Below are positions 7,724 to 31,645 of a DNA stretch of 58,794 nt, in pieces. Below the pieces are notes generated by a model. That model was given only the letters and a program-made list of their open reading frames with translations. It did no database searches and had not been told where the DNA came from. The stretch covers positions 1-58,794 of the forward strand of contig CAYUAG010000009.1 in the NCBI GenBank assembly GCA_964442615.1, given 5' to 3'. Position numbers and translations under genes: made by a program. The stretch's first letter is position 1; each line of letters starts with the position of its first letter. The stretch comes from an uncultured bacterium (GTDB taxonomy: Bacteria > Zhuqueibacterota > QNDG01 > CAYUAG01).

Positions 7724-7796
<73 letters not shown>

Positions 7797-12838: not shown

Positions 12839-12846
12839 GGTAAGTA

Positions 12847-13390: not shown

Positions 13391-15424
13391 ATTCAGAAAG
13401 AAAATTATAATACAGTAGTAAGTCAGAAAAAAGATCCTGTATTAATTTTTGCTCAGAGGTATAAGGCTTTTTTTGACTCAACTACTGATGGGATAGTTAT
13501 ATTTAATATAGATGGTCAAATACTTGATTCAAATCCTAGTCTTATCAAATTAAGTGGTTACTCGTTTGATAATCTTGTTTCATTGCGTATTGATGATTTA
13601 TTTGATAAGAATAGTATTGAGTTAATACACCGTAAGATTAAAAAGTTGTTAGAAAAACAAGATAAAATAAGGTATCCTTTTGAATGTAATTTAATATCTA
13701 AAAAATCAAAAAGGAAACCAGTTGAGATTGGTTTAAGTTTATTAGAAAACCAATATGGATTTTCTAAATCAATACTTGCAGTAATAAGAGATATTACCCG
13801 TAGAAAAGAAGCAGAAAAAAATCTTATACAGCGAGCAGAGGAATTACAGAAAGTCTTTGATGCAGTACCTACAATGCTCTGTGTTATTGATGAGGGAAAA
13901 CGAGTTAAAAAGATTAATCTTGAAGGTGTTATTTTATTTAAAAAGCAAGAAAAAGAGATTATTGGAAAAAAAATTGGTGAGATAATTAATTGTAAATATA
14001 AAAATAATTCTAAAAGAGGTTGTGGTTTTGGGGAAAAATGCAGTGAATGTTCAATCAATGAGAGTATATTAAGATGTTTAAAAAACGATGAAAATGTTCG
14101 AGATGTTGAGGTGTCAATCATTACTAAAAAAAGAAAAAATGAAATTATAAAATTTTATCAGCTGAATGCCATACCACTCCGAGCATATGGAAAGAGATGT
14201 GGTGTAGTTTCATTAAAGGATATTACAGCCAGAAAAGAAGCAGAACTCAAGACTGAACATCTGCATAATAATATTGAACAGACTAATATTGAATTAAAAA
14301 AGGCTTTGGATGATCTTGCTAGAAGTCAATCTCAGTTAATTGAATCACAGAAACTCCAGCAGATAGGCTTACTAAGTTCTGGATTGGCACATAATTTAAA
14401 AACACCGATAGCTGGAATAAAAGGGTATGCTCAACTCCTTAATTATAAGTATCCTGATTCAGATGAGTTAAATATGATTCTTGATGAGGTTGAAATAATT
14501 GAAAAGATTACAAATGATTTAATGTTAAAGAGTAGAAAAGATCATAGTAATCAACAAGAAAATATAAATTTAAATGAACTAATTCGTATAGAGTTAAGTT
14601 TTTTAAGTGCAAATTTATTTTTTAAACATAAAATTAAAAAGATAATCGAACTTGATGAGCATCTTCCCCTTCTCACAGGAGTATATACTCATTTTAGTCA
14701 GAGTTTAATGAATATCATTCAAAATAGTATTGATGCCATGTATCATACTGAGAAAAAAATTTTGAAAATTAAATCATTTCACGATAAAAATTCTATTTAT
14801 ATCAAAGTAGAGGATACAGGGACAGGAATTCCGGATGAAATTCAAGATTCAGTGTTTGATCCATTTTTTACAACTAAATCTTCAAGTTTTGATAGTAGTG
14901 AGAATAAGCCTGTAGGAACAGGACTGGGTTTAAGTAGTGCCAGTTATTTTATTCACCAATATAGTGGGAATATAGATATTTTCAGCACTGAGGGAAAAGG
15001 TACCAAAGTAACAATTAGCCTACCATATAAATCTAAAAGAATGGAAAACAATAATAGACGTATGATTATTGTTGATGTTTCTAAGGAGATGGTGGATATT
15101 TTTGTACAGATATGCAGGGATATGGGATTAGAAGCTCATGGAACCACACAAGGCTTAAAAGTGCTTGAATTATATAAAGAGATTAAACCAGTCCTATTAG
15201 TTATAGATTTATCTTTATCAGATTTAAATGGTAAAGATCTTACCAAGAGAGTTCGGGAGTTAAATCCTGAACAAAAAATTATATTTATTAAAGGGTATTC
15301 AGAGGATTCAAAATATCATGAGTGGCTTTCTCATCAATGCCAGAAACCTTCCATATCATCAGCTATCAAAAAACCATTTTCATTAAATGAATTCAGAAGA
15401 ATAATTCAGAGAATGCTTTTTTAA
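13391..15424 (+). CDS. Hybrid histidine kinase PAS-PAS-HisKA-HATPase-REC; probable ATT start at 13391 (ORF track start is 13583)
   Basis: H-box LAHNLKTP, NIIQNSIDA, DTGTGI, FDPFFTTK, GTGLGL and a C-terminal REC. The frame is open for 64 codons upstream of 13583 and encodes a PAS start (RYKAFFDSTTDGIVIFNIDGQILDSN). AGGAG at 13379-13383 lies 7 nt before ATT. Confidence 0.85.
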   Translation: MQKENYNTVVSQKKDPVLIFAQRYKAFFDSTTDGIVIFNIDGQILDSNPSLIKLSGYSFDNLVSLRIDDLFDKNSIELIHRKIKKLLEKQDKIRYPFECNLISKKSKRKPVEIGLSLLENQYGFSKSILAVIRDITRRKEAEKNLIQRAEELQKVFDAVPTMLCVIDEGKRVKKINLEGVILFKKQEKEIIGKKIGEIINCKYKNNSKRGCGFGEKCSECSINESILRCLKNDENVRDVEVSIITKKRKNEIIKFYQLNAIPLRAYGKRCGVVSLKDITARKEAELKTEHLHNNIEQTNIELKKALDDLARSQSQLIESQKLQQIGLLSSGLAHNLKTPIAGIKGYAQLLNYKYPDSDELNMILDEVEIIEKITNDLMLKSRKDHSNQQENINLNELIRIELSFLSANLFFKHKIKKIIELDEHLPLLTGVYTHFSQSLMNIIQNSIDAMYHTEKKILKIKSFHDKNSIYIKVEDTGTGIPDEIQDSVFDPFFTTKSSSFDSSENKPVGTGLGLSSASYFIHQYSGNIDIFSTEGKGTKVTISLPYKSKRMENNNRRMIIVDVSKEMVDIFVQICRDMGLEAHGTTQGLKVLELYKEIKPVLLVIDLSLSDLNGKDLTKRVRELNPEQKIIFIKGYSEDSKYHEWLSHQCQKPSISSAIKKPFSLNEFRRIIQRMLF

Positions 15425-15449
15425 TTTAATGATTTTTTATAAGGCGATA

Positions 15450-15484
15450 GGTAAAAAGTACCATCTTAATGCCACATTTTTACC
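15450..15484. promoter_or_regulatory. Putative tandem bEBP enhancer sites
   Basis: GGTAAaaaGTACC at 15450 and ccacatttTTACC at 15472, 22 bp apart, about 130 bp upstream of the 15613 promoter. Confidence 0.55.
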
Positions 15485-15612
15485 TACTTTACTATATATT
15501 GTAAAGTGATAGTTTTATATTACTATAAATTTATTTATTTTAAATTTAGCAAAAATAGTATAATAGAATGAACATGATTAGTTTAAATGGACATCTTAAT
15601 TTTTCCTAATAA

Positions 15613-15628
15613 TGGTGTTATTTTTGCA
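15613..15628 (+). promoter_or_regulatory. Sigma54 -24/-12 promoter
   Basis: TGGTGTTATTTTTGCA (GG-N10-GC), upstream of the 15923-19171 gene run. Confidence 0.6.
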
Positions 15629-15922
15629 TATTAAAAGATCAGTAAATTTACTTTAGTAAGTAGAAAGGGAGAAATTTTAATTTAAATAAATCATTACCAA
15701 TACAGTTGCATTGTCTACTTATATATTAGTAAATTTTTATTATATGAGATTTTATCAGTAAGTTGTTAAACGAGTAACGAGTAAAAAAAGAATAGTAGTT
15801 CGAATGAATAATGATATAGTTACGAAACAATATGAAAGTACTACTCTATTTCCAGTAAGTTTAATTCTTGGTAATATAGTGAAAATTTTTTATATATTTT
15901 GATTATGGAGAAGATGTAAAAA

Positions 15923-16528
15923 ATGGAGAAAGATAAAAAAGAAAGTTTAATAGAAAAATTTAATAATGTACTTGTTATTGATGATGATACCTTTATGATA
16001 GATATTCTTTCGCGTTATTTAACTCAATTAGGTTTTAATGTAACAGCTGTTCAGACAGGAGAAGAAGCAGTCAAGACTATTAAAAAGACAAAAATTCATA
16101 TTTCTATAGTTGATTTATTACTTTTTGAGATGGATGGTATTGAACTGATTAATAAATTTAAAATAATTGATGATGAAATGATAATAATTCTCATTACTGG
16201 ACATCCTAGTTTTGAAACTGCCGTAGAGGCTTTAAAGCTAGGAGTACAAGATTATCTTGTTAAACCATTTAAATTGGAACAACTTGATAAAGTCTTGAAA
16301 AAGTCTTTAGAAGAAAAAAAGATGATTATGGAAAATAAGAATTTACGAAAAGAGTTAAAGAAAATTAAGGATAAACTTCAATATTATAAAGAACTTGTTA
16401 ATCAATCTGAAGATATTAAACAATGGGTGACTAATAATTTACAGAAATTGGAAGAGTTGAAAGATAAAGGAATTATTACAGAGGAAGAATACAAACAAAG
16501 GCGAAATAATTTAAATGCAAATAAATAG
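15923..16528 (+). CDS. Response regulator with REC, coiled coil and C-terminal SHOCT-like domain
   Basis: VLVIDDD, IVDL, ITG, VKPF. C-terminus LQKLEELKDKGIITEEEYKQRR matches the SHOCT pattern. Confidence 0.85.
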   Translation: MEKDKKESLIEKFNNVLVIDDDTFMIDILSRYLTQLGFNVTAVQTGEEAVKTIKKTKIHISIVDLLLFEMDGIELINKFKIIDDEMIIILITGHPSFETAVEALKLGVQDYLVKPFKLEQLDKVLKKSLEEKKMIMENKNLRKELKKIKDKLQYYKELVNQSEDIKQWVTNNLQKLEELKDKGIITEEEYKQRRNNLNANK

Positions 16529-16536
16529 GTAATATT

Positions 16537-17802
16537 ATGGTTAGAAAAATATCTGTAAATAATAAAAATGAGGTTTTACCCTTAGCTGAAGCTTTTAATT
16601 CATTTAATAATATAATATCAGATTTGGATTTATCCTATAAAGATTTAAAAGGTAGTATTGAAGAGTTAAATTTGAAGATATCTGAAAAAAATAAATTTTT
16701 AGAAAAAAATTTTTTTGAGGTAAATAGAGTACGCTGCTTTTTTGATTCTATACTGAATAGTATGAGAGATGGAGTCATTGTTGTGGATATGAAAGGAAGA
16801 ATAGTGCTATTGAATAAAAGTATAAAAAAAATGACTGGTTATTCTGATTACGAGGTGATTGGAGAATCTTATAAAAAAATTTTTGGAAAAACAGTAAGTG
16901 AAAGGTTTTCTCCAATCTATACGCTATCACATAATATTCCTCTTGTTATGGAGGAGAAAGAGTTAACAACTAAATCTGGTAAAAAAATCCCTGTTCGTTA
17001 TAGTACTTCTATTGTTTATGATAGTGAAGATGAGGTGATTGGTGTGGTTGAAGTGAGCAGTGATTTGACCAGAATAAAAAGACTTGAAGTTCAGATGCAG
17101 AAGATAAAAACTCAAGCTGCATTAAATCAAATGGCAGGATTGGTTGCTCATGAAATAAGAAATCCTTTGGCTGGTATTAAGGGATATATAGATTTATTAA
17201 AAGAATCGTTTGATAAATCGGACAAAAAGCAAGAGAAAATCAATGAAATATATTCATTAATTAAAAAACTAAATAAGATCGTGGTTAATTTTATGATAAT
17301 GGCACAACCTATTAAACCCAATTTTGTTAAAACCGATATCATAGAATTTATACAAAATGTAACTGATTATTTTTGCTCAAAAAATAATTTAGAAGAAAAA
17401 AAAATAACACTTGATATTTCAATTCCCGAAGGTATGGATACTCTTTTGATAAATTGTGATCCCATATTAATGGAGCAGACCTTAATCATGATACTTGACA
17501 ATGCTGTAAAAGCTATGGACATAGGGGGAAATTTGGGAATAAAACTTAAAACAGAACATATTCAAGAGAGGAGAAAAAGAGAAATAGCCATTATAATTTC
17601 TGATTCAGGTTGCGGAATGTCAAAAGATGTTAAGAATAAAATATTTAATCCTTTTTTTACTACAAGAGATAAGGGAATGGGATTGGGATTATCACTTGCA
17701 AGGAATTTTATTAAGTTTCATGATGGTAATATTTTTGTAGAGAGTGAAGAGGGGATAGGAACAACAGTAAACATAATTTTACCTAAAAGTTATGAGGTAT
17801 AA
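16537..17802 (+). CDS. Soluble PAS histidine kinase, FleS/FlrB-like
   Basis: N-terminal LAEAFNSFN...L..SY..L coiled coil as in FleS-type kinases, PAS SMRDGVIVVD, H-box VAHEIRNPL, GMGLGL. Lies upstream of a bEBP and fliE. Confidence 0.85.
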   Translation: MVRKISVNNKNEVLPLAEAFNSFNNIISDLDLSYKDLKGSIEELNLKISEKNKFLEKNFFEVNRVRCFFDSILNSMRDGVIVVDMKGRIVLLNKSIKKMTGYSDYEVIGESYKKIFGKTVSERFSPIYTLSHNIPLVMEEKELTTKSGKKIPVRYSTSIVYDSEDEVIGVVEVSSDLTRIKRLEVQMQKIKTQAALNQMAGLVAHEIRNPLAGIKGYIDLLKESFDKSDKKQEKINEIYSLIKKLNKIVVNFMIMAQPIKPNFVKTDIIEFIQNVTDYFCSKNNLEEKKITLDISIPEGMDTLLINCDPILMEQTLIMILDNAVKAMDIGGNLGIKLKTEHIQERRKREIAIIISDSGCGMSKDVKNKIFNPFFTTRDKGMGLGLSLARNFIKFHDGNIFVESEEGIGTTVNIILPKSYEV

Positions 17803-19171
17803 AATGGTTAATAGAAAAATACTTGTAGTTGAAGATGATCCAATTCTTAGAAAATTTATTACTGATGTATTGGAAAAAAGAGGAGCTGAGGTAACTCGAT
17901 GTGAAAATGGAGAAAAGGCATTTAAAAAGATAAAGAGTAATTCATACCATTTGATATTAAGTGATTTAAAAATGGAAGGGATGGATGGTTTAGAATTACT
18001 TACAGAGACAAAAAAAATATCACCTTCAACAGAAGTAGTAATAATAACAGCGTATGGTACGGTTTCCAGTGCAGTCGAGGCAATTAAAAAAGGAGCTTTT
18101 GATTATATTACTAAACCCATAGAATTGGAAGAGCTTTATATAGTTTTAGATCGTGTGTTTGAGCATCAGAAACTTATTGATGAGAATAAATATCTAAAAG
18201 AGAGATTGAATAAAAATGATGCTACAAACAAAATTATTGGAAAGAGTCAAAAGGCTCAAAAAGTCAGAGAGCTTGTTGAAATGGTTGGGCCTCTTGATTC
18301 TACTATTCTCATACAAGGGGAAACAGGTACAGGTAAAGAAGTAATTGCTAATTCTATTCGCCAAATGAGTCCGAGAAAAGATGCACCCTTTATTAAAGTT
18401 AACTGTGCTGCTTTACCTGATACTCTTCTGGAGAGTGAGTTATTTGGTCATGAGAAAGGAGCTTTTACTGGTGCTATTCAAAAGTCTAAGGGGCGTTTTG
18501 AACTGGCAGATGAGGGCACTATTCTTCTAGATGAAATAGGTGAGCTTGGTCTTCAAGTTCAAGCTAAACTTTTACGTGTTCTTCAGTATCAACAATTTGA
18601 GCGGGTAGGAAGTGGTATAAGTATTAAAGTTGATGTACGTGTTTTAGCAACTACAAACAGAAATTTAAAAGAAGAAGTAAAAAAGGAAAAGTTTAGAAAA
18701 GATCTTTTCTTTAGATTGAACGTAGTTTCAATTACCAGTACTCCTTTACGTGAACGCAGAGAAGATCTGCCTTACTTTATTGAATATTTTCTACAAATGT
18801 ATAATAAAAAATATAATAAAAAGAAATCCCTTTCAAAAAAAGCCATGGAATTGCTGATTAAGTATGATTGGCCGGGAAATGTCAGAGAATTAGAAAACTG
18901 TATTGAGACTGCTATAATACTTAATCATGAGACAATTTTAGAACCTAAAACTTTTCTTTTTTTAGAGGAAAATCGGGATCTCCTGGAAGAAGGCAGTACT
19001 TTCAATTCCAATATGTCTATTGCTGAAGTAGAGAAACAGTTAATAATTAAAACTTATAGAAAAATGAATCATAATAAAACCCGTACTGCTAAAGTTCTTG
19101 GAATTACAATAAAAACTTTAAGAACAAAATTAAAAGAATATGGGGTTATAGAGTCTAAGAAAAAAGGGTAG
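17792..19171 (+). CDS. Sigma54-dependent response regulator, FleR/FlrC-like
   Basis: REC, GETGTGKE, ESELFGHEKGAFTGA, LLDEIGE, WPGNVREL and HTH. Position is directly before the flagellar genes. Confidence 0.92.
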   Translation: MRYKMVNRKILVVEDDPILRKFITDVLEKRGAEVTRCENGEKAFKKIKSNSYHLILSDLKMEGMDGLELLTETKKISPSTEVVIITAYGTVSSAVEAIKKGAFDYITKPIELEELYIVLDRVFEHQKLIDENKYLKERLNKNDATNKIIGKSQKAQKVRELVEMVGPLDSTILIQGETGTGKEVIANSIRQMSPRKDAPFIKVNCAALPDTLLESELFGHEKGAFTGAIQKSKGRFELADEGTILLDEIGELGLQVQAKLLRVLQYQQFERVGSGISIKVDVRVLATTNRNLKEEVKKEKFRKDLFFRLNVVSITSTPLRERREDLPYFIEYFLQMYNKKYNKKKSLSKKAMELLIKYDWPGNVRELENCIETAIILNHETILEPKTFLFLEENRDLLEEGSTFNSNMSIAEVEKQLIIKTYRKMNHNKTRTAKVLGITIKTLRTKLKEYGVIESKKKG

Positions 19172-19201
19172 AAAATACTCTTTAAATAGTGAAATATTTC
19201 C
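19167..19201. promoter_or_regulatory. Putative tandem bEBP enhancer sites
   Basis: GGTAGaaaATACT at 19167 and GTGAAataTTTCC at 19189, 22 bp apart, about 120 bp before the 19320 promoter. Confidence 0.5.
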
Positions 19202-19206
19202 TGGTT

Positions 19207-19248
19207 GGTCTTACCTTAATATTTTATATTAAGGTAAGACCTTTTTTT
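19207..19248 (+). terminator. Intrinsic terminator after the FleR-like gene
   Basis: Perfect 16-bp stem GGTCTTACCTTAATAT-ttt-ATATTAAGGTAAGACC followed by T7. Confidence 0.85.
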
Positions 19249-19319
19249 AAATTATTTTAAATTACTGATAATAAAATATTTATAAAACTCTAAATATTAA
19301 TTAGAGAATAGTGTATTGT

Positions 19320-19335
19320 TGGCATACCCCTTGCT
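19320..19335 (+). promoter_or_regulatory. Sigma54 promoter for fliE-flgD
   Basis: TGGCATACCCCTTGCT, near consensus. Confidence 0.85.
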
Positions 19336-19398
19336 TGAATTTTCTAATGGAATATTATAGATAATTAAGAAAGCCATAAAAATTATAAGGAGGAACAA

Positions 19399-19686
19399 GT
19401 GAATTCAATTTCAAATATTTCCGGTAAAAATCAAAATTCTGCATTTCCTATAAAAGAACCAGTACTGGTCGATAAAAATTTCAGTAAAACAATAAAATCA
19501 GCTTTACATGTGATTAATAATCTCATTCACGATTCTGGTGAAACTGTTAAGAAAATGTCTAAAGGAGAGATTAATGATATTCAAGATATGATGATAGCAG
19601 CTGAGAAAACCTCAATAGGTTTAGAATTAGTAGTTGAGGTCAGAAATAAACTGTTAGAATCATATTGCCATACATTGGGATTGTAA
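19399..19686 (+). CDS. fliE: Flagellar hook-basal body protein FliE with an aberrant C-terminus (possible pseudogene)
   Basis: F...K.A...N...GE..D..D.MIAAEK.SI.LE..VEVRNKLLESY is FliE-like. The usual QEIMRMQV-type end is replaced by CHTLGL. GTG start with AGGAGG RBS. Confidence 0.85.
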   Translation: MNSISNISGKNQNSAFPIKEPVLVDKNFSKTIKSALHVINNLIHDSGETVKKMSKGEINDIQDMMIAAEKTSIGLELVVEVRNKLLESYCHTLGL

Positions 19687-19803
19687 GTGTAATTTTTGTT
19701 TTAGTAATTTTGGGAGTTTTTGTAATGGATTTCATAGGTTCAGTAGAATCAAAGAATACAGTTGTCATGAAATATGTATATCAATAAGAGGAGGTGAGGT
19801 AAT

Positions 19804-20466
19804 ATGAGTACAGGACAGATCAATCAGGTAATTCAATCTCAACAGCAACAAATTAGTACGATTCAGTTCCAACAGTTAAGAAGATATACTTTTTTGAATC
19901 TTTTATTTACCCGGCTTAGTAATCAGAAGCCCCTTAATCTAATGGAAAATACAGAGTTTATTACTCAGTTGACAGAGATTAGTTCATTGGAACAATTGTA
20001 TTCAATCAATGAATCTTTGTTAGTAAGTCATAACATTAATAATTCAATTAATAGTTCATTGTTGACAAATTTACTCGGTAAAGGAGTTAAAGTAAAAAGT
20101 AATATTATCCACTATTCTGATGAATATACTCCTGGAATTGGGTATGATTTAGCAAAAAGTGGAAATATTTTTATACAAATATCTAATAGTTATGGAGAAG
20201 TAATTAGAAACATTGATCAGGGAATTCAAACTGCTGGTGAATATAGTGTAGAGTGGGATGGAAAAGATAAATCTGGAAATAAGGTAGAAGAAGGTAATTA
20301 TACCTTCAAAGTAGTAGTCCAGGATAGGGAAGGTGAGACCGAAGTAAGAGTTACATATTTAATTGGGAAAATATCAGGAGTAAAATTTAAAGATAGAAAT
20401 CAGGTTTTATTTATGGGAGATCAACCTGTTGATAGTTTAAAAATAATGTATGTTTGTATGTCTTAA
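19804..20466 (+). CDS. flgD: Flagellar hook-capping protein FlgD with degenerate motifs
   Basis: FLNLLFTRLSNQKPLNLMENTEFITQLTEISSLEQL resembles FL.LL..QL.NQDPL.P.D..EF..QLAQFS.LEQ. Ig domain WDGKDKSG....GNYTF. Confidence 0.88.
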   Translation: MSTGQINQVIQSQQQQISTIQFQQLRRYTFLNLLFTRLSNQKPLNLMENTEFITQLTEISSLEQLYSINESLLVSHNINNSINSSLLTNLLGKGVKVKSNIIHYSDEYTPGIGYDLAKSGNIFIQISNSYGEVIRNIDQGIQTAGEYSVEWDGKDKSGNKVEEGNYTFKVVVQDREGETEVRVTYLIGKISGVKFKDRNQVLFMGDQPVDSLKIMYVCMS

Positions 20467-20555
20467 ATTGTATTTTTAAATCTAATCTTAATTTTATCAT
20501 CCTCTCTTGTTTATAATCTTAAAAATTTTAATATTTTATTTTTTATTAATAATAA

Positions 20556-20590
20556 GTTAGAAAATACACCCCTAATAGTAAATTTTTAAC
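20556..20590. promoter_or_regulatory. Putative tandem bEBP enhancer sites
   Basis: GTTAGaaaATACA at 20556 and GTAAAtttTTAAC at 20578, 22 bp apart. 20555-20594 matches 19166-19205 at 28/40 positions without gaps. Confidence 0.45.
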
Positions 20591-20707
20591 TGGTCATTTT
20601 TTTATATTATATGTTAAGTGGTAAACAGTCTGTATTGTTGAGATTGTAAGTTTTTTAAATTTAAATAATTATATCACTCATAATATATTTTGTAATTGGT
20701 CTATTAT

Positions 20708-20723
20708 TGGCATATTGCTTGCT
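20708..20723 (+). promoter_or_regulatory. Sigma54 promoter for fliN
   Basis: TGGCATATTGCTTGCT (GG-N10-GC). Confidence 0.85.
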
Positions 20724-20846
20724 TAATAAAATATATTGGAAATAGAAATAGGGTAAAAAAATATTTAATGAGAAAAGTAACCAAGTAGTATAATTTCTTG
20801 CTTTTGGGAGTGAATGTTAGTGAAAAAATAAAAAGGAAATAAGACT

Positions 20847-21287
20847 ATGCAGAATATGGAAAATAAAAAGAAGAATATTGGAGAGAAGAAGAATAAAAAA
20901 CAGGATGTATTTTTTCAGAACAAAAAATTTACTACTATGGATGCAAAAAATAAGAAAGAAAATATAAACGAGCAGCAGTTTACTCTTGTTAACTTTAGTG
21001 AAAGAAAAGTTAAATCTGAAGATAATATTAATAGATTAATGGATCTGGAACTTCCTATATCGGTGGAATTAGGCAGAAAACGTTTGTTGGTAAAAGAGAT
21101 ACTTGAATTAGAACCTGGGGTAGTAATTGAGTTGAAAAAGTTTTCAGGTGAGCCCGTAGATATTTATGTTGATAATAAGAAGTTTGCAGAAGGGGAAGTA
21201 GTTAAAATAGAACAGAATTTTGGAGTAAGGATAACCGCCTTAGTGGGACCTGATGATCGGTTACCCAGGTTAGATAAGCATAAATGA
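20847..21287 (+). CDS. fliN: Flagellar motor switch protein FliN (SpoA domain)
   Basis: LMDLELPISVELGR...KEILEL.PG.VIEL.K..GEPVDIYV..K.FAEGEVV....NFGVRI. Confidence 0.92.
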   Translation: MQNMENKKKNIGEKKNKKQDVFFQNKKFTTMDAKNKKENINEQQFTLVNFSERKVKSEDNINRLMDLELPISVELGRKRLLVKEILELEPGVVIELKKFSGEPVDIYVDNKKFAEGEVVKIEQNFGVRITALVGPDDRLPRLDKHK

Positions 21288-21515
21288 GTTTAATTAAGTG
21301 AATATTTGGATTAGTAAAAAAAATATATTTTTTGATAAACTGAGTGTTTGTGTAGATTACCAAATTTCGGTTTAGTAACCAAAGTTAGAATGTTTATTTA
21401 ACGCAGAGTGCGCAGAGACAATTTAGTTTTTTTAGTATTGGTGGCCTTTGCGTTGAGAAGGAAATTTTAATAGATAAAACATATTATCATTTTTAGTTAG
21501 TTTTAAAATACAGTG

Positions 21516-21550
21516 ATTAATTATTTCCTAGTTAATAGGTAATTTTTTCC
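21516..21550. promoter_or_regulatory. Putative tandem bEBP enhancer sites
   Basis: ATTAAttaTTTCC at 21516 and GGTAAtttTTTCC at 21538, 22 bp apart, about 90 bp before the 21642 promoter. Confidence 0.55.
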
Positions 21551-21641
21551 AGTATTTTTTTACCATTTATCAGTTTTTAAAAAGTAATACTATATATTAA
21601 ATAATATTAAGGATTTAGAAAACATTAAAAAATTATTGAAA

Positions 21642-21657
21642 TGGCATGTCATTTGCT
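21642..21657 (+). promoter_or_regulatory. Sigma54 promoter pointing into the sensor-phosphatase array
   Basis: TGGCATGTCATTTGCT (GG-N10-GC). Confidence 0.82.
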
Positions 21658-21753
21658 TGTAGTAATAAATTGAGATGATGTTTTAAGAACAACCAAAAGT
21701 ATTCTGTAGTTGTAATTGATATTAATTAGAAGGTTCTTGAAAAAACCAAAATC

Positions 21754-22251
21754 ATGAATCCAGTTTTGATTTTAGAACATTCTCATGAGCAAGTTAGTAC
21801 TACCCTGAAGCAACAGAAAAAAGCAGTGGAAAACCAGAATAACATGGATGTGTGTCTCTGTGTTTTAGAGAAAAACGGTGGTCAGCAACTGTTATTTGCC
21901 GGAGCTAAGCGTTCCCTGTATATCATAAAACGAGGAGAGAATACACTAACTGAGATAAAAGGAGACCGAAAGTCCATTGGAGGAAGGCAGCGGGAGGAGG
22001 AGCGGGTATTTACCGGACATGAGCTTAAGGTTCGGAAAGGAGACAGGTTATACTTAACCACAGACGGATTTGCTGATCAGCAGAATTCAAAGAACAGACG
22101 ATATGGATCAAGACGGCTGAAAACTTTTCTACAGTCAGTTTCTGAGCTGGAGATGCAGGAGCAGGAGAAAGTATTAGCTCAGGAATTAGCCAGACATCAG
22201 GGTAAGGAGGAACAGCGGGATGATATTACGGTGGTAGGGGTGAAGATATGA
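21754..22251 (+). pseudogene. Array unit A0: C-terminal fragment of a SpoIIE/PP2C phosphatase
   Basis: Starts mid-domain at the internal Met of the paralogs' KIMNP. Lacks VSGDFY and DCTGHG, and DGMD has become NNMD. The 3' half is nearly identical to the paralogs (TTDG, RDDITV). Confidence 0.85.
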
Positions 22252-22269
22252 ATAACAGAATGAACAAGA

Positions 22270-25200
22270 GTGAAATATACAGGGAATCTGTTTGGAAGAG
22301 AACAAAGCTGTTCAATTTTTTTTTATTGTACGATTTTAATGATGAAAAGGAGTAATGTGATGATGTTATGTTCAAGATTATTTTTACAATTAAAACTAAA
22401 ACTACAATTAGTATGTGTTGTATTTGTAATTAGTTTACCTGTTGTACTGTTTTCAGAAAATAATATCCATTTTGAAAATATTTCTGTTGAACAGGGGCTT
22501 TCTCAAATTTCAGTCAATTGTTTGCTTCAGGACAGGAATGGATTTATGTGGTTTGGAACCCTAGATGGACTCAATAAATATAATGGCTATAACTTCAAAA
22601 TTTATCAATATGAGATAAAGGACCCCAGTACATTATCTCATAACTCTATACTTTCAATCTTTGAAGATCGATCCGGTTTGATATGGATTGGTACGGATGG
22701 GGGCGGTCTTAATAGATATGATCCTAAAACAAATCAGTTTAAACATTATAAATATGATCCCCAAAATGCTCATAGCATCAGTGATAACAGGGTGACTGCC
22801 ATATTTGAAGACAAATCGAATATACTCTGGATTGGAACAATAAATGGCCTCAATAAATTTGATCCCAAAGAACAGCAGTTCTTTCGTTATTTCCATGATC
22901 CAGAAAATACCAACAGCCTGGGGAATAATTATATTCAATGTTTATGTGAAGTCCAAACAGGTGACATCTGGATTGGAACAGGTGGCGGTGGGATATCTGT
23001 CCTGAGTCGGAATAACCAAGGTAAAGATCAGTTTACCCATATCAAACGGGATCCAAAAAATCTCAGCAGTTTGATCAATAATACTGTTAACTCAATTCTT
23101 CAAGACAACACGGGGATGATATGGATCGCAACTAATGGAGGACTGGATAAATATGATCCGGGAAAAAAACAATTTACCCATTTCCAAAATGATCCAGACA
23201 ATCCCAAAAGCCTGATTAATAATACTGTTAACTCAATTCTTCAAGATAGCACAGGGATGATATGGATCGGAACTAATGGAGGACTGGATAAATATGATCC
23301 AGGAAAAGAACAATTTGTCCACTATATGGATGAATCTTTTTCTATCACAACATTTTGCAAGGATAGAACAGGTGTTCTTTGGATAGGGACCATTGGCAGT
23401 GGGATCTATAAATTTTATAGAGAAAAAGAAAATTTTCTCCATTACAATCGAGATCTTTCTGATACCAATAGCTTGATCAGCAATGTGGTATGGTCTTTTT
23501 GTGAGGATAGCCGGGGAATACTATGGATTGGAACTGTGAGTGGACTGGATCAATTCGATCGTTCTAAAAACCAATTCATTCACTATACAAATGACCCTCA
23601 AAATCCAAACAGTTTGAGTAACAATGATGTCAGATCAATCCATGAAGATCAAAGTGGAGCCCTTTGGATCGGAACCAGCGGAGGGGGGCTGAATAAACTG
23701 AACAGAGACCGAAACCAATTTAAAAGATTTCTGAATAATCCCCGTAATCCCACCAGTTTGAGTCATAATTTTGTCTCAATAATCTTTGAGGATAGAAAAA
23801 AAATGTTATGGATTGGAACCTACGGTGGTGGTTTGAATAAATTTGATCGACACAAAGGAGAGTGTACCCGTTATGTGAAAGATCCAAATGATATCAATAG
23901 TCTGGCACACAATTATGTTAATGTCATTTATGAAGACCGTACCGGGAAACTCTGGATCGGCACCCGCGGTGGGCTGGATAAATTTGATCAACAGAACAAC
24001 TGTTTTATTCACTACAAAAATGACCCGGATAATCCCAATAGCCTGAGTTATAATTTGATTTTTTCTATCCTTGAGGACCAATCAGGTATGTTGTGGATCG
24101 GGACATATGGAGGTGGATTAAATAGATTAAATCCCAGAACAGAAACATTTACTCATTTCACAGAAAAGGATGGGCTTCCAAATGATGCTATTTATGGGCT
24201 TCTTATGGACAAAGCTGGAAATATTTGGATAAGTACAAATAATGGGTTGTCACAATTTAATCCAGAAACACAAATATTTAAAAATTTTAATATAAGCGAC
24301 GGACTGCAAAGCAAGGAATTTGATAGAGGAGCATATTATAAAAGCATAAGAACGGGAGAAATGTTTTTTGGTGGCGTTAATGGTTTTAATGCATTTTTTC
24401 CTGATAAAATTAAAGATAATCCATTTATTCCTCAGATTGTCATAACGGATTTTAAGTTATTCAATACATCTGTTTTGATTGGAGAAAAGATTGATGATCG
24501 AATCATCTTGACGAAAAGCATAACAGAAACAGACAAGATTGAAATCTCTTACAAACAAAATGTTTTATCCTTTGAGTTTGCCGCGTTACATTATATCTCC
24601 CCGGAAAAAAATCAATATGCATATATGATGGAAGAACTGGATAAGGATTGGAATTATGTGAACAACCGGCGATTTGCCTCCTATACAGGTATTCCTCCAG
24701 GTAAATACACTTTCAGAGTTAAAGCCTCCAATAATGATGGGGTGTGGAATGAAAAGGGAGCATCCATTAAAATAACCATTACTCCTCCTTTTTGGCAGAC
24801 CTGGTGGTTTCGAACTTTGATAGCAATTTTTATTATAGGAATTGCTTTCAGCTGGTATAAGATGAAAGTTAGAAACCTGGAAAGACAGAAACAGAAACTT
24901 GAAAAGCAGGTTAAGGAGAGGACTACCGAAATTCGACATAAGAATAAACAACTTGAGAAAAAGAATGAGCAGATCTTAAGCAGCATCCGCTACGGAGAGC
25001 GTATTCAGAATGCTATTTTACCCCTGACTGAAAAGATACGATCTTCTATACCTCAACACTTCATTCTTTATAAACCAAGAGATATTGTCTCCGGTGATTT
25101 TTACTGGTTTAATCAAATTGATGGGAAGATAGTATTAGCTGTGGTAGACTGTACTGGTCATGGAGTACCAGGAGCCTTCATGTCAATGATGGGTAATGCT

Positions 25201-25734
25201 TTTTTGAATGAAATAGTTACTGAACAAAAGATCATGAATCCCTCTTTGATTTTAAAACGTCTTCATGAAGAGGTCCGTACTGCTTTAAAGCAGAAACAAG
25301 AGAAGGTTGACACCCAGGATGGTATGGATGTGTGTCTCTGTGTTTTAGAGAAAAACAGTCACACCCAAAAGCTTTTATTTGCGGGAGCCAAGCGTCCGCT
25401 CTTTGTTTTCAAAAAGGGAGAGTCTAAACTTACTGAAGTTAAAGGAGACCGCAAATCAATTGGGGGAAAGCAGCGGGAGGAGAAGCGGGAATTTACCGGA
25501 CATGAGCTTAAGGTTCGGAAAGGAGACAGGTTATACCTGACCACAGACGGATTTGCTGATCAGCAGAATTCAAAGAACAGACGGTATGGATCAAGACGGC
25601 TGAAAACTTTTCTACAGTCAGTTTTTGAGCTGGAAATGCAGGAGCAGGAGAAAGTATTAGCTCAGGAATTAACCAGACATCAGGGTAGAGAGGAGCAGCG
25701 GGATGATATTACGGTGATGGGGGTGAGGGTGTGA
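22270..25734 (+). CDS. Array unit A1: Reg_prop beta-propellers, Y_Y_Y, TM, SpoIIE/PP2C phosphatase
   Basis: Repeated D..G.LWIGT.GGL..FD blades, YTGIPPGKYTFRVKASNNDGVW, PPFWQTWWF plus TM, VSGDFY, DCTGHG, DGMD, TTDG, RDDITV. True start is probably downstream of the GTG. Confidence 0.92.
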   Translation: MKYTGNLFGREQSCSIFFYCTILMMKRSNVMMLCSRLFLQLKLKLQLVCVVFVISLPVVLFSENNIHFENISVEQGLSQISVNCLLQDRNGFMWFGTLDGLNKYNGYNFKIYQYEIKDPSTLSHNSILSIFEDRSGLIWIGTDGGGLNRYDPKTNQFKHYKYDPQNAHSISDNRVTAIFEDKSNILWIGTINGLNKFDPKEQQFFRYFHDPENTNSLGNNYIQCLCEVQTGDIWIGTGGGGISVLSRNNQGKDQFTHIKRDPKNLSSLINNTVNSILQDNTGMIWIATNGGLDKYDPGKKQFTHFQNDPDNPKSLINNTVNSILQDSTGMIWIGTNGGLDKYDPGKEQFVHYMDESFSITTFCKDRTGVLWIGTIGSGIYKFYREKENFLHYNRDLSDTNSLISNVVWSFCEDSRGILWIGTVSGLDQFDRSKNQFIHYTNDPQNPNSLSNNDVRSIHEDQSGALWIGTSGGGLNKLNRDRNQFKRFLNNPRNPTSLSHNFVSIIFEDRKKMLWIGTYGGGLNKFDRHKGECTRYVKDPNDINSLAHNYVNVIYEDRTGKLWIGTRGGLDKFDQQNNCFIHYKNDPDNPNSLSYNLIFSILEDQSGMLWIGTYGGGLNRLNPRTETFTHFTEKDGLPNDAIYGLLMDKAGNIWISTNNGLSQFNPETQIFKNFNISDGLQSKEFDRGAYYKSIRTGEMFFGGVNGFNAFFPDKIKDNPFIPQIVITDFKLFNTSVLIGEKIDDRIILTKSITETDKIEISYKQNVLSFEFAALHYISPEKNQYAYMMEELDKDWNYVNNRRFASYTGIPPGKYTFRVKASNNDGVWNEKGASIKITITPPFWQTWWFRTLIAIFIIGIAFSWYKMKVRNLERQKQKLEKQVKERTTEIRHKNKQLEKKNEQILSSIRYGERIQNAILPLTEKIRSSIPQHFILYKPRDIVSGDFYWFNQIDGKIVLAVVDCTGHGVPGAFMSMMGNAFLNEIVTEQKIMNPSLILKRLHEEVRTALKQKQEKVDTQDGMDVCLCVLEKNSHTQKLLFAGAKRPLFVFKKGESKLTEVKGDRKSIGGKQREEKREFTGHELKVRKGDRLYLTTDGFADQQNSKNRRYGSRRLKTFLQSVFELEMQEQEKVLAQELTRHQGREEQRDDITVMGVRV

Positions 25735-28700
25735 TGATTGACAATGAAGTTAACATAATAATTCTTAGTATAGAGAATATATTTTTATAATAATTAAAGG
25801 AATTTGTTATGAAAAATCGTAAACAATGGTATTGGGTACAATTTTTTATATTTTTAGTTTTTAGTTGTGTTTACGCTTCAGACAAAGATATTCATTTTCA
25901 ACATATTACTATCAATGATGGTCTATCTCAAAATTCTGCCAATTGTTTACTCAGGGACAAGAAAGGATTCATGTGGTTTGGAACCCAGGATGGATTGAAT
26001 CGATTTGATGGGTATGAATTTACTGTCTATAGAAACGATCCCATGGACTCAACCTCAATATCTGATAATTATATTCTGTCTATGATTGAAGATTATACCG
26101 GAGCTATCTGGGTTGGAACCCAGAATGGATTAAATAGATTTTCTGTTGAGAAAGAGATATTCAAACGATATTGCTTTTGTACTGATAGTCCTTATTGCTT
26201 GTGTGACAAACAAATAAAAACTATTCATGAATCATTTGTTGAGCCCGGGATTCTCTGGATCGGTACTGAGAATGGGTTAAGTCAATTGAATGTTGAAAAC
26301 GAGCAAGTGACAAATTATTTTCACGATACTCAATAATTCAATAGTCTGATTCACAATAATGTGGAGGTGATTTATCAAACACGTTCACATCCAGAAGTCA
26401 TCTGGATTGGTACTGAGGGGGGATTGGATAAGTTTAATATAGAAAAGCAACAATTCATTCATTATCAATATGATCCGGATAATTCCAACAGTTTATGTCA
26501 TAATCATGTGATGGCCCTTTATAAAACTCCATCAGAACCGGGAGTGCTTTGGATCGGAACCAGGCATGGATTGGATCGATTTGATATGGAGAAAGAACAG
26601 TTTACTCATTACCGTCATAATCTCAATAATCCCAATAGTCTTATTCATGATTACATCAGGGCTATTTATGAATCCCCGGAAGAACCAGGAATACTCTGGA
26701 TAGGTACCTTTGGAGGAGGTTTGGATAAATTCAATAAAGCAAATAAAAAATTCACCCACTACGTTTATAAAATTGAAAATTCCAGCAGCATCAGTGATAA
26801 TTTTATTTTAAATTTTTGGGAGGATGAATCGAAAATTTTATGGATTGGAACTGAGGGAGGAGGAATTAATCAATACAATCGAGTTTCCAAACAGTTTCTA
26901 TTATATCAGCATGATCCTAATAATCCCAACAGTTTAAGCATTAATCACGTTCGCTCCATTTATGAATCTCCATTAGATTCAACTATTTTGTGGATAGGAA
27001 CCTACGATGGATTGAATAAATGGGATCGAGAGAGAGGGATTTTTACCTGCTATAATCATGATCCGAAAAATCCAAATAGTTTGAGCAGTAATTTGATACG
27101 GGTTGTTTATGAAGACAGAAGCGGTTTAGTATGGATTGGGACTTATAATGGTGGTCTCAATCAATTTGATCCTAAAACAGGAGTGTTTAATCACTATCGT
27201 CATGATCCGGATGATTCCTATAGTATAAGTAATGATTATGTCAGGACTTTGTATCAAGACAGATCAGGAGCGATATGGATAGGAGCGGTTGGAGGTGGAC
27301 TGGATCGTTTTGATAATAAAAATGGCCGTTTTTATCACTATACTTATAATCCAGATGATTCCACTGGTATAAACAGTGATCGTGTATATGCTATCTGTGA
27401 AGATAAAGAGGGTATTCTCTGGTTGGGAACATCTAAGGGATTGAATCGATTTGATCGAGAGTCAGAAACATTTACCTATTATACCCATGATCCAAATGAT
27501 CTTACAAGTATAGGGAATAATCTTGTTATGAGTGTTTATAAAGATAGAAGAGGACAGTTGTGGATAGGAACATGGGGAGGAGGAATAAACAGGTTTGATC
27601 ATCAGACTGAAAAATTTTATCGTTATACAAAAAAAGATGGTCTGGCTAATGATGTGGTGTATGGTATTCTTGAAGATAAGCAAGGAAATCTCTGGCTCAG
27701 CACCAATTATGGATTGTCAAAATTTAATCCAGAGAAAAAAACTTTTAAAAATTATGATGTGACTGATGGCCTTCAGAGCAATGAATTCAATGCTGGTGCT
27801 TATTATCAGAATATAAGAGGAAAAATGTTTTTTGGAGGAATCAATGGATTGAATGCATTTTATCCCGATAAAATCAGAGACAATCCCTATATTCCTCCTA
27901 TTGTGATTAATGATTTTCAGATATCGAATCAAACAGTTCCAATTAAGAGTCAAGATGAGGAAGATGTGATTTTATCAAAATCCATTATCTATACTAATGC
28001 AATTACTCTCTCTTATAAAGAGGATGTTATATCTTTTGAATATTCAGCACTGAATTATGTGTCTTCTGAAAAGAATCAGTACGCCTATATAATGGAGGGT
28101 TTGGATAAAGAGTGGAATTACGTAGGAGAGAGGCGTTTTGTAACCTATACTACTCTTCCTCCAGGTGAATATACGTTTCGAGTAAAAGGCTCCAATTGCG
28201 ATAGGATATGGAATGAGGAGGGAACATTTTTAAAGATCATCATTACTCCTCCTTTCTGGCAGACGTGGTGGTTTAAAATAGTAGCCGGGTTGTTACTCAT
28301 GGCCGTAGTTTATTTTATATTCTATCTTAAGACAAAGAGTTTTAAAAAAAGAGAGAAAAAACTTCAAAAAACTGTTCAGGAACGAACCAAGAAGTTAGAG
28401 CAAGCAAACAAAAATTCTAAAATCCTGAAAGATGAGGCTCAAAAGAAAGCTGTTCAATCTGATTTATTATATAGAATAGGGCAGAGAGTGAGTAGCGAAT
28501 TGGAAACAAAATCTCTTTTTAATGAAATAGTCAAGTCCATACGAAAAACTTATAATTATTTCCATGTAGCGATTTTATATTTAGATGAAAACACAGAAAA
28601 GATCAAATTAAAAGCCATATCCAGCGCTGAACCCGAAAAACATCTTAAAGAATTAACCCTGTCTTTAGGACAAGGAATGATAGGGCAGGCAGTTTTAACT

Positions 28701-28956
28701 GGTAAAATCAAGATAACTGGCAATGTTCGAAAAAATCCTCACTATGTTAGAATCAAAGAAGAAACCATACAATCTGAACTTGATATTCCGTTAAAAAGCG
28801 GTAATAAGGTTATGGGTGTTCTTAGTATACAAAGTGATAAATTAAACGCATTTGATAAAACAGATATTACAGTAATGGAGATTCTCAGTACTCAAATTGT
28901 TTCGGCTATAGAAAACGCCCGGCTTTATGAACAGACAAAACGACGAGCAGTTCAAT

Positions 28957-29344
28957 CTGCGATAATTTATAAGACTGGTCAGCGGGTTGGCAGTCAGTTA
29001 GAAATTGATGCTCTGCTGCCTGAAATTGTGACCTCTGTTTGTGATGAATTTGACTATTACAGCGTAGCTCTTTTAATGATAAATGAGAAGTCAGATCATT
29101 TAATTTTGAAGGCTATAGCTGGGGAAAATGCTAAGTTTGCTCCAGTTAGTTCAAAGATTAGAATGGGAGAGGGAATAACAGGATATGTTGCCCAGTGTGG
29201 TGAGACACAGGTCTCAGGAGATATTAGAAAGAATTCTCATTATGTTTCTTTTGGAAAAGAAAAAACCAAATCTGAGCTGACAGTACCATTAAGGAGTGGG
29301 AAGAGAATTATTGGTGTTCTTGATATTCAAAGTGATACATTAAA
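28957..29344 (+). repeat. 388-bp GAF-coding direct repeat; second copy at 44746-45133
   Basis: I found no differences by eye from ctgcgataatttataagactgg to gtgatacattaaa. Offset 15789. Confidence 0.85.
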
Positions 29345-30867
29345 TGCCTTTGATAAAACTGATGTTACAGCCATGGAGATTCTAAGCACTCAAATTGTAT
29401 CAGCAATAGAGAATGCTCGACTTTATGAACAGACAAAACGGCGGGCAGCTCAAACTGCTTTGATTTATGAGGTAGGTAAACGTTTGAGCAGTAACTTAAA
29501 TTTTAAAGAGTTATTAACCACTATTGTGACCACTATTTGTGAAGCCTTTGATTACTATGGTGTTATGATGCTTATGTATGATGAGAAGTATGAATATCTT
29601 ACTCTTCAGTCCATCACTGGAGGGTATGTAGGTACATTTCCTCTTGATCTTCGCATTGCTAAAGGAAAAGGAATGATCGGGCAGGCAGCAAAAACGGGAA
29701 AAATCCAGGTAAGTGGGGATGTTAGTCAAGACCCTCATTTTGTTCGGAAGGAGAAAGAAAAAACAAAATCCGAACTTTCGGTACCGATTAAGCTTGGTGA
29801 TAAAGTGATCGGAGTACTTGATATACAGAGTGATAAACTCCATGCATTTGATAACACGGATGTGACTGCTATGGAAACTCTCAGTACCCAGATCGCTTCA
29901 GCTATTGAGAATGCCAGGCTTTATGAACAAGCTCAATATGAAATTTCAATACGAAACAAGACGGAGAAAGAGTTAGAGAAACGCAAGAGTTATTTGGAGT
30001 CGGTATTGCAAAATGCTCCGGATGCAATTGTAACCATGGACAAATCCCACAACATTGTTGACTGGAATGAAGGTGCTGAGAAAATATTTGGATACAAGGA
30101 AAAAGAGGTATTGGGAAAAAATATTGACAACCTTATAACCTCTCCTGATGTTAAAGTTGAGTCACAAGGAATGACCAAGCAAGTCCTTTCAGGTAATAAG
30201 GTTCCTTCCAGGGAGTCAATTCGTTATAGGAAAGATGGAACTTCTGTGAATGTTATTGTAGCTGGTTCTCCAATAATAATTGAAAATAAATTTCATGGCA
30301 TTGTAGCAGTATATACTGATATCACTAAGCGGAAAAAAGCAGAAAAAGAGCTAAGTCAGAAGAATAAAGAGCTTGAAACCATGGACAGTGTAGTAAAGAT
30401 TATTAACAAGAAGATTGATCTAGAAAATGTTCTTCAGTCGCTTTTAAGACAAACACTAAATTTTTTCCCCCAGGCGGAGAAAGGTTCCTTTTTAATTTAT
30501 GATGAGGATATGGAGAAGTATCGGTATGCGGTAGTAAATGGATATAATGTAAAAGATGTTAAAAATATTCATCTTACTGAAAAAGAAGTAATGGACAGTT
30601 ACACCGAGCATTCAGAACAGTTGGATGCAGGAGTTTATGTTATACGGAATATTAAAGGTTTATCAACTCAGAATAAGTTACATCGTGTTGAAACTCCCAA
30701 GTCAATGTTAGCCATGTCAGTGATTTTGGAAGGCAGGTTAGAAGGATTTTTGATATTGGACAATATGAAAGATCAGGATGCATTTAATAAGACAGATGTT
30801 CAGAAATTGCTTCGTTTTCGGGAGCATGCAGTATCAGCATTTATCAGGGCAAAGAGCCTGCGGTTGC

Positions 30868-31627
30868 TGGAGGAGAAGAATAAGAATATCTTAAGCAGTA
30901 TTCGATACGGAGAGCGTATTCAGAATGCCATTTTACCCCTGACCAAAAAGATACGATCTTCCCTGCCTCAACACTTTATTATCTTCAAACCCCGAGACAT
31001 AGTCTCTGGTGATTTTTACTGGTTCAATCAGGTGGATGGGAAGATTGTCCTGGCAGTAATAGACTGTACCGGTCACGGTGTCCCCGGGGCCTTTATGTCC
31101 ATGTTAGGTAATGCATTCCTGAATCAAATAGTTACTGAACAAAAGATCATGAATCCCTCTTTGATTTTAAAACGTCTTCATGAAGAGGTCCGTACTGCTT
31201 TAAAGCAGAAACAAGAGAAGGTTGACACCCAGGATGGTATGGATGTGTGTCTCTGTGTTTTAGAGAAAAACAGTCACACCCAAAAGCTTTTATTTGCGGG
31301 AGCCAAGCGTCCGCTCTTTGTTTTCAAAAAGGGAGAGTCTAAACTTACTGAAGTTAAAGGAGACCGCAAATCAATTGGGGGAAAGCAGCGGGAGGAGAAG
31401 CAGGTATTTACCAGTCATGAGATTAAGGTTCAGAAAGGAGATCAGTTATACCTGACCACAGATGGTTTTGCGGATCAGCAGAATCCGAAAAACAAACGAT
31501 ATGGCTCAAGACGGCTGAAGGCTTTTCTCCAGTCAGTTTCTGAGTTGGAAATGCAGGAGCAGGAGAAAGTATTAGCTCAGGAATTAGCCAGACATCAGGG
31601 TAGAGAGGAGCAGCGGGATGATATTAC
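30868..31627 (+). repeat. 760-bp PP2C-coding direct repeat; second copy at 45781-46540
   Basis: I found no differences by eye from tggaggagaagaataag to gatgatattac. Offset 14913, and the translations are identical. Confidence 0.88.
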
Positions 31628-31645
31628 CGTGGTGGTGGTGAAGAT

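Follow-up and report, generated by a model that had tools for sequence, protein, structure and literature searches.

Flagellar hierarchies that depend on σ54 and employ two activators include FlrA/FlrBC of Vibrio, FleQ/FleSR of Pseudomonas, and FlgSR of Campylobacter and Helicobacter. The hybrid two-component systems of Bacteroides reportedly sense through periplasmic domains built of Reg_prop and Y_Y_Y modules. The HptB-HsbR-HsbA partner switch of Pseudomonas is said to be a PP2C-type phosphatase pathway that lies beside flagellar genes; we know of no σ54 promoter that feeds its phosphatase gene. SiaA belongs to the SiaABCD threonine-phosphorylation switch of Pseudomonas aeruginosa, and structure 6K4E is that of its PP2C domain (PMC7647112). 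The locus considered here lies on a contig of 58,794 nucleotides (nt) from an uncultured marine-sediment bacterium, analysed over its full length and called the window. Within it, an exact match to the σ54 promoter consensus at 21642, located among a few flagellar genes, is followed by a tandem array of nine genes for SiaA-like sensor phosphatases, and the first element of this array is a truncated copy. The explanation that best accounts for the whole, and which is somewhat favoured, is that a genuine σ54 promoter sits at a rearrangement breakpoint and would send transcription into the start of the array.

The window is the entire contig C9 of the genome bin G000, which comprises 3.58 Mb in 146 contigs, has 34.8% G+C, and is 85.7% complete. 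G000 was compared with three genomes of the same genus (G001-G003) and with its order, represented by 31 genomes including G000 itself. Genes in the window were assigned by matches of Pfam profiles to the translations of open reading frames (ORFs). The σ54 consensus used was TGGCAY-N5-TTGCW, exact or with at most one mismatch; genome sites were scored for a position outside ORFs of at least 80 amino acids and for a co-oriented ORF downstream, and strand bias was counted, forward versus reverse, in 1,227 gene-upstream regions of G000.

The site at 21642, TGGCATGTCATTTGCT, matches the consensus exactly, with its GG and GC elements 10 nt apart. Because σ54 transcripts usually begin about 12 nt beyond the GC element, a start near 21668 is predicted. 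The window holds five exact matches, and eight matches at no more than one mismatch versus 2.94 ± 1.56 in shuffled sequence, where eight or more were reached in none of 100 shuffles. All five exact sites are intergenic and face a gene (fliE, fliN, a 165-amino-acid ORF of the array, the M23 peptidase gene on the minus strand, or flgN) whose start is 43-132 bp away. Throughout G000 there are 18 exact sites, 15 of them intergenic with the start of a co-oriented ORF 16-298 bp downstream, and in the upstream regions the core motif is present 12 times forward and never in reverse. In the sister genome G002, 21 exact sites contrast with none for a backwards control pattern. By itself, GG-N10-GC is not informative, with 122 matches versus 117 ± 11 expected; the signal therefore resides in the extended consensus. 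Since none of these 122 matches falls within a spacer between array units, the site at 21642 is the only σ54 site directed into the array. The factor itself is encoded in G000 (rpoN, Sigma54_DBD E 4.8e-58, contig C114), as are nine strong Sigma54_activat genes, two of which lie in the window just upstream of the promoter. These results support the view, already advanced in a first-pass annotation of this DNA, that 21642 is a σ54 promoter; judged by sequence, it bears every mark of a working one.

Approximately 76 nt after the predicted start, the DNA gives way without transition to the final 508 bp of one of the sensor-phosphatase units. When positions 21300-22400 were compared with the rest of the window by blastn, they matched the last ~500 bp of eight of the nine full units at 77-84% identity, with homology beginning at 21744-21768, as had been noted earlier for a point near 21745; the ninth unit matches over 164 bp only. 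The full units are alike for about 300 bp further 5', a stretch over which the first copy resembles them no more than by chance (0.33-0.44). A gap of 466 bp separates fliN from the 165-amino-acid ORF; the intergenic sequence 21288-21753 has no paralogues in G000 except weak AT-rich matches. In an alignment with the nine units, the ORF starts at a conserved internal methionine (KIMNP), with in-frame stops just upstream. It is without the motifs SGDFYWF and DCTGHG, which all nine units keep, its version of the nearly invariant TQDG reads NQNN, and the Pfam SpoIIE match covers only positions 40-190 of the 192 in the profile. In the second motif of SiaA, the DC (D474/C475 region) binds metal (PMC7647112), and the DC of DCTGHG aligns with this region of 6K4E; the set of metal-binding PP2C motifs is incomplete in the ORF, which begins after both N-terminal motifs. 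No Shine-Dalgarno sequence precedes its ATG; the starts of the full units carry one, and AGGAG occurs upstream of genes across the genome 489 times forward versus 64 in reverse. Because the motifs, the Shine-Dalgarno sequence and the 5' homology are missing, what stands at the left edge of the array is a unit truncated at its 5' end and catalytically incomplete; and because homology starts abruptly and the first element is truncated, the promoter meets the array at a rearrangement breakpoint.

Misassembly does not explain the junction. It is bridged without differences by a 637-nt contig from run X1 (21237-21873) and by a 197-nt contig from run X3 (21604-21800); X1 and X3 are two samples of one study, and the bin may derive from one of them. 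Synteny with same-genus genomes on both sides of the junction places the contig in this bin. A further X1 contig leaves the window after 21591 and continues with 65 nt of unlike sequence, which may come from a strain whose junction differs or from a unitig that is chimeric; a 20-mer from this continuation is not present in G000.

The truncated copy differs from the nearest unit by a synonymous divergence (dS) of 0.47. Its ratio of nonsynonymous to synonymous divergence (dN/dS) is 0.17-0.26 against the units, versus 0.09-0.20 between most full units, and a three-way estimate made by hand (fragment, unit 1 and unit 4) gives ~0.30 on the fragment branch and 0.13-0.20 on the other two. Constraint on the fragment is thus only mildly relaxed, and its reading frame has stayed open. 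This could mean that the truncation is young compared with the divergence, that gene conversion holds the copy to the sequence of the units, or that the peptide has a function.

Each full unit combines a Reg_prop propeller, Y_Y_Y, in some cases GAF or PAS, and a PP2C domain of the SpoIIE family. The SpoIIE match spans profile positions 2-191 in all nine, and the motifs are invariant or nearly so; with complete PP2C domains, the nine units are predicted phosphatases. The PP2C domain of unit 1 matches 6K4E with E 7.7e-38 over 225 residues. The layout is that of an operon: the units are co-directional, no strong terminator stands between them, and the spacers, in order from the truncated copy, are ~110, 74, -4 (a 4-bp overlap), 60, 71, 71, up to 66, up to 50 and 9 bp. 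A terminator scan of 19000-58794 gave 17 hits, a number at the level of shuffles (9 versus 9.5 and 8 versus 9.8); all but the one after activator 2 are inside coding sequence, and no terminator-like site was seen in any inter-unit spacer. The absence of a strong hairpin from the spacers, an earlier observation, is thus borne out, and all that is present is a weak hairpin (GAACA/TGTTC) followed by nine T residues between the fragment and unit 1. This hairpin has 5 bp with two G-C pairs (~-4 kcal/mol, z 0.65), is no better than shuffles, and was not called by the scan. The earlier proposal that the promoter reads into the array is favoured by the ~76 nt from the predicted start to the array, the common direction, the tight spacing and the lack of strong terminators, and would hold best for the first units.

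Upstream of the promoter, the first-pass annotation had placed an enhancer-like pair at 21516-21550. The pair exists as two overlapping dyads. One of these, the GGTAA-N3-TTTCC dyad GGTAATTTTTTCC (21538-21550), stands 104 bp before the -24 element and is similar to GGTAATGTTTACC, a perfect palindrome situated between the divergent σ54 promoters of the M23 gene and flgN and within the best conserved block of the intergenic alignment of G000 and G002. A composition-weighted comparison of 24-nt windows picks exactly the dyad of the 21524-21550 region and the block 57875-57898, a result equalled by 2 of 500 shuffles. The dyad class occurs at 167 sites in the genome (at most one mismatch); sites 40-260 bp upstream of the 99 relaxed σ54 motifs give seven pairings versus ~1.0 expected, three of which involve the two sites that gave the motif. 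The other four precede a gene for a giant Ig/fn3 protein, a seven-transmembrane (7TM) kinase with receivers, a DUF6272-SiaC-DUF6272-kinase operon, and an operon of a receiver, an unknown gene and a hybrid kinase. The dyad is absent from the fliE and fliN promoters. The short word TTTCCT was rejected as a signal; it is uninformative, with 1,310 occurrences of ATTTCCT in the genome. Support for the dyads as a shared, putative activator site is moderate, and control by the upstream phosphorelay is plausible from its proximity and the shared dyad.

Taken together, these features suggest the following course of events. The site at 21642 would be an activator-dependent σ54 promoter, one of five downstream of a two-activator phosphorelay. 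Activators 1 and 2, with their kinases, are candidate regulators, the PAS kinase and activator 2 being nearest. The truncated copy would be inactive as a lone PP2C domain and, having no ribosome-binding site, is most likely a leader of ~690 nt. Transcription probably runs into unit 1 and then, with decreasing certainty, down the array. The firing of the promoter, the identity of the activator, the extent of the transcript and the original follower (a flagellar gene or an intact first unit) are what we infer.

Several points weigh against this course of events. The junction is seen in one genome only. A search for RNA runs covering 20800-24800 returned none. The likeness of the dyads is post hoc, and when the similarity to the M23/flgN region is scored unweighted, the procedure picks an AT-only stretch that 36 of 200 shuffles reach, which is not significant. 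The hairpin with its T9 run could act as a partial terminator and stop part of the transcripts. The open frame and the dN/dS of the fragment may mean that it is more than a leader, or that the truncation is recent. Promoters of the σ70 type may lie inside the array: matches to them number about as many as in shuffles for the first half of the region (85 versus 83.5) and somewhat more than in shuffles for the second half (91 versus 73.8 ± 7.5), and two of them lie in or near spacers, at 25750-25778 (9 of 12 positions) and 46707-46734 (10 of 12). A single 35-kb transcript without internal starts is unlikely.

Some of these points would be accounted for if the promoter were active but served only the truncated ORF or leader, most transcripts ending at 22300-22324 and the units using housekeeping-type promoters of their own in the spacers. 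The hairpin and T9 come right after the fragment, the spacers at 25735, 38540 and 42007 share a conserved AT-rich sequence of ~75 nt, σ70-like candidates stand at 25750 and 46707, and the genome does use promoters of the TTGACA/TAnnnT type (97 forward versus 43 reverse in upstream regions); for a Bacteroidetes-type -7 motif, TA..TTTG, the counts are 153 versus 111, and its use is not clear. However, the hairpin is weak and fails the criteria of the scan, none of the spacers offers a well-matched -35/-10 pair at the right distance, one pair of units shares 4 bp and 10 bp separate another, and duplication alone can account for the conserved spacers. This alternative is considered unlikely.

The spacer sequence bears on the history of the array as well. 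Units 2 and 6 are nearly identical over their last 167 codons (30960-31649 and 45873-46562; dS 0.039), and units 1 and 2 are close (dS 0.14). Given these low values and the common spacer sequence, the array has been duplicating or converting recently. Unit 2 (25809-31649) is one reading frame broken by a single in-frame TAA at 26334-26336. At 26335, contigs of runs X2 and X3 have C rather than A, which removes the TAA; since these contigs read through, the stop is a strain variant or an assembly error and not a fixed pseudogene mutation.

The promoter at 21642 had also been called flagellar. It does stand among fliE, flgD, fliN and flgN, all recognized by Pfam, with σ54 sites before fliE, fliN and flgN, but the main parts of a flagellum were not found. 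The genomes searched range in completeness from 85.7 to 96%, so that the absences given here mean not found in those searched. FlhA (PF00771) was not found in seven genomes (G000, G001-G003, G014, G025 and G027), and the rod/hook proteins (PF00460) and flagellin (PF00669) were not found in the four searched (G000, G002, G014 and G025). FlhA is present in G006, G019 and G024, and G006, which served as a control from the same order, has FlhA, rod/hook proteins and flagellin. When the translations of 16 ORFs from the G006 operon were compared with G000 by tblastn, only FliN was recovered, together with weak matches to three other ORFs that are read as generic paralogues; in the gaps 15425-15922, 19172-19398, 20467-20846 and 21288-21760 the same 16 translations gave no relic flagellar genes (best E 0.15). 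As assembled, at 85.7% completeness, G000 does not encode the export gate, rod/hook and filament of a flagellum. Because FlhA, rod/hook proteins and flagellin are missing from the searches, the "flagellar" cascade no longer builds a flagellum, and across its genus the pattern in four genomes speaks for loss of the machinery and retention of the cascade plus a few small genes. In several genomes of the order fliN is retained, in some of them together with fliE, flgD, flgN, FliW and M23, behind σ54 sites beside NtrC-type activators; these retained genes could be relics or have a non-flagellar use.

Contig C126 of G002 matches 7743-18384 at 77-80% identity and stops inside activator 2; repeated arrays break the assembly of this genome. 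The segment 15636-16557 (the receiver-SHOCT gene and its flanks) has no counterpart in the otherwise collinear C126, where the gap is 24 bp. Contig C1 of G002 ends in the PP2C domain of a unit, convergent with an M23 orthologue (68% identity); after M23 come the corresponding divergent σ54 pair and flgN, then FliW, then a σ54-driven operon of receiver, Hpt and kinase genes. In G003 (contig C159, locus L041, G003:C159:1-8000, positions 138-1229), a C-terminal M23 fragment adjoins a fragment of activator 1, the equivalent of ~11803-57278 (cascade, flagellar genes and array) being deleted. G001 has no close match to M23 or the cascade. Positions 19000-22400 have no blastn match in the three same-genus genomes, in none of which FliN was found. 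Across the order, FliN is present in 10 of 31 genomes at E ≤1e-20. In G006, G012, G019, G024 and G030, fliN is within a long co-directional run of ORFs, which includes flhA in G006, G019 and G024; the rest of these runs is read as a standard fliM-to-flhA operon. In G014 and G027, fliN stands behind a σ54 site, after an activator and before signalling genes, and in G025 it is directly followed by convergent M23 and flgN, with no array between.

These genomes bear on how the promoter came to face the array. The first-pass annotation had offered capture by deletion, and the truncated unit at the left edge is what a deletion-type rearrangement would leave, but no relative with the ancestral flagellar target was found. 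Apart from this junction, none of the 31 genomes of the order has a σ54 site behind fliN, and consequently the original downstream gene cannot be named. Among the 21 exact σ54 sites of G002, only the M23/flgN pair is within 1.5 kb of unit-like, FliE, FlgD or FliN sequence. The exact 27-nt promoter pattern had no match in metagenome contigs, and searches for the locus based on FliN returned only distant relatives, at 32-69% identity, with one further at 47%. That the array was always σ54 dependent is as tenable as the capture of a flagellar promoter; a paralogous propeller sensor on contig C2 likewise stands behind an exact σ54 site.

The loss of the flagellum also raises the thought that the promoter is a silent relic, an intact site of a decaying regulon that no activator fires any more. 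The flagellar core not found in G000, the deletion of the activator 1-to-M23 stretch in G003 and the lack of a close M23 or cascade match in G001 are in line with it. Nevertheless, the cascade genes are intact and syntenic in G002, where the M23 and flgN σ54 sites and the palindrome between them are conserved as well; an unused 16-nt motif with 11 specified positions is not expected to remain perfect, and the great majority of exact sites in G000 are in promoter position. Such a relic is quite improbable. Finally, an assembly chimera of the metagenome bin or a chance motif match, for which one could cite the bin's 146 contigs and incompleteness, the arrays that break the G002 assembly and the X1 contig that departs after 21591, is rendered highly improbable by the two contigs from two samples that bridge 21604-21800, the 77-84% identity of fragment and units (which offers no identical repeat to mis-join), the synteny on both sides, and the shuffle, position and strand-bias statistics of the motif.

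G000 has exactly one SiaC-family gene, on contig C45 (C45:10928-14498, L063). A DUF6272 gene stands on either side of it, a GAF hybrid kinase gene comes after these, and ahead of it are a relaxed σ54 motif, TGGTATATTTATTGCA, and, 230 bp upstream, a dyad-like site. The product of the SiaC-family gene is a candidate for the common substrate of the SiaA-like array phosphatases. On contig C2 (C2:29036-32168, L001), a propeller/Y_Y_Y paralogue of 956 amino acids, whose sensor part shares 39% identity with that of unit 1, has no PP2C domain and ends in a short C-terminus with LPICAKCK. Because this paralogue, too, follows an exact σ54 site (at 247 bp), σ54 control of this class of sensor is not unique to the array.

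Regulon rewiring at a σ54 promoter is thus a credible reading of the sequence. A wider proposal can be put forward only tentatively: the flagellum was lost and the σ54 hierarchy, with its two kinases, two activators and their promoters, was retained through rewiring to a 35-kb battery of SiaA-type phosphatases with periplasmic sensors and to other signalling operons, among them that of the single SiaC-type phosphoprotein, the truncated unit being the scar of the capture. If this is true, a motility regulon would have turned into a many-inputs-to-one-switch sensing system, with many sensors converging on a SiaC-type protein. If the promoter fires, nine paralogous environmental sensors would depend on a phosphorelay inherited from a flagellar hierarchy, and the locus would offer a concrete, datable case of regulon rewiring by deletion-type rearrangement in an uncultured marine-sediment bacterium. 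It would also give the propeller-sensor PP2C phosphatases a predicted target, the SiaC-type phosphoprotein, whose gene follows a promoter of this class. The practical value of the finding is modest until transcription is measured.

The surroundings of the locus are collected in the table. Two side observations concern the region before the flagellar genes. At 12436-12451, 34 bp before the first receiver gene downstream of activator 1, there is a σ54-like site with one mismatch, TGGCATGACTTTTGAT; the syntenic G002 contig has no relaxed σ54 site as its counterpart. At 5433-7362, a gene of the sodium:neurotransmitter symporter family seems split into ORFs of 461 and 153 amino acids and may be broken.

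Table. Features of the window, in order of position
Feature	Position	Strand	Basis or remark
Transporters	5' part of window, before 7975	+	
RR-PAS-GAF histidine kinase	7975-10941	+	Pfam
σ54 activator 1 (receiver, AAA+ σ54 interaction domain, HTH_8)	10934-12310	+	Pfam Sigma54_activat E 3.8e-64
Two single-domain receiver genes	downstream of activator 1	+	
Hybrid kinase	between receivers and receiver-SHOCT gene	+	
Receiver-SHOCT gene	15923-16528	+	
PAS histidine kinase	16537-17802	+	Pfam
σ54 activator 2	17792-19171	+	Pfam Sigma54_activat E 8.5e-69
Strong terminator	19207-19241		after activator 2
Exact σ54 site before fliE	19320-19335	+	
fliE	19399-19686	+	Pfam
flgD	19804-20466	+	Pfam
Exact σ54 site before fliN	20708-20723	+	
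fliN	20847-21287	+	Pfam
Candidate upstream activator site	21524-21550	+	overlapping dyads TTTCCTA-N5-TAGGTAA and GGTAA-N3-TTTCC
σ54 -24/-12 promoter TGGCATGTCATTTGCT	21642-21657	+	GG 21643-21644, GC 21655-21656
5'-truncated array unit	21744-22251 (ORF 21754-22251, 165 amino acids)	+	C-terminal two thirds of SiaA-like PP2C domain
Weak hairpin GAACA/TGTTC, then T9	22300-22324	+	between fragment and unit 1
Array of nine full units, overall	22360-56746	+	Reg_prop propeller, Y_Y_Y, optional GAF/PAS, PP2C (SpoIIE family)
Unit 1	22360-25734	+	Pfam
Unit 2	25809-31649	+	Pfam; in-frame TAA 26334-26336
Unit 3	31646-35059	+	Pfam
Unit 4	35120-38539	+	Pfam
Unit 5	38611-42006	+	Pfam
Unit 6	42078-46562	+	Pfam
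Unit 7	46629-49970	+	Pfam; start uncertain
Unit 8	50021-53479	+	Pfam; start uncertain
Unit 9	53489-56746	+	Pfam
M23 peptidase gene	56768-57667	-	convergent with last array unit
Exact σ54 site of M23 gene	57710-57725	-	
Perfect palindrome GGTAATGTTTACC	57886-57898		between divergent M23 and flgN σ54 promoters
Exact σ54 site before flgN	58007-58022	+	
flgN	58154-58678	+	Pfam

A literature search returned no paper that joins σ54, flagellar genes and PP2C arrays, and none in which Reg_prop or Y_Y_Y appears together with SpoIIE. The described systems nevertheless resemble this locus in part. As in the flagellar σ54 hierarchies, histidine kinases and NtrC-type activators stand beside fliE, flgD, fliN and flgN with -24/-12 promoters; here, however, FlhA, rod/hook proteins and flagellin were not found in G000, the largest block behind such a promoter is an array of phosphatases, and promoters of the same class precede signalling genes. 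The units share the Reg_prop and Y_Y_Y sensor architecture of the Bacteroides hybrid two-component systems, but their output is a PP2C phosphatase rather than a fusion of kinase, receiver and DNA-binding domains. As in HptB-HsbR-HsbA, a PP2C-type pathway physically and functionally adjoins flagellar regulation; that switch has one response-regulator phosphatase, whereas this locus has an array of membrane sensors. The likeness to SiaABCD lies in the PP2C domain of unit 1, which matches SiaA, and in the one SiaC-family gene of G000 with its DUF6272 neighbours. In contrast to that system, the sensor here is a double propeller with Y_Y_Y (and GAF/PAS in some units), and nine tandem paralogues stand in place of a single gene.

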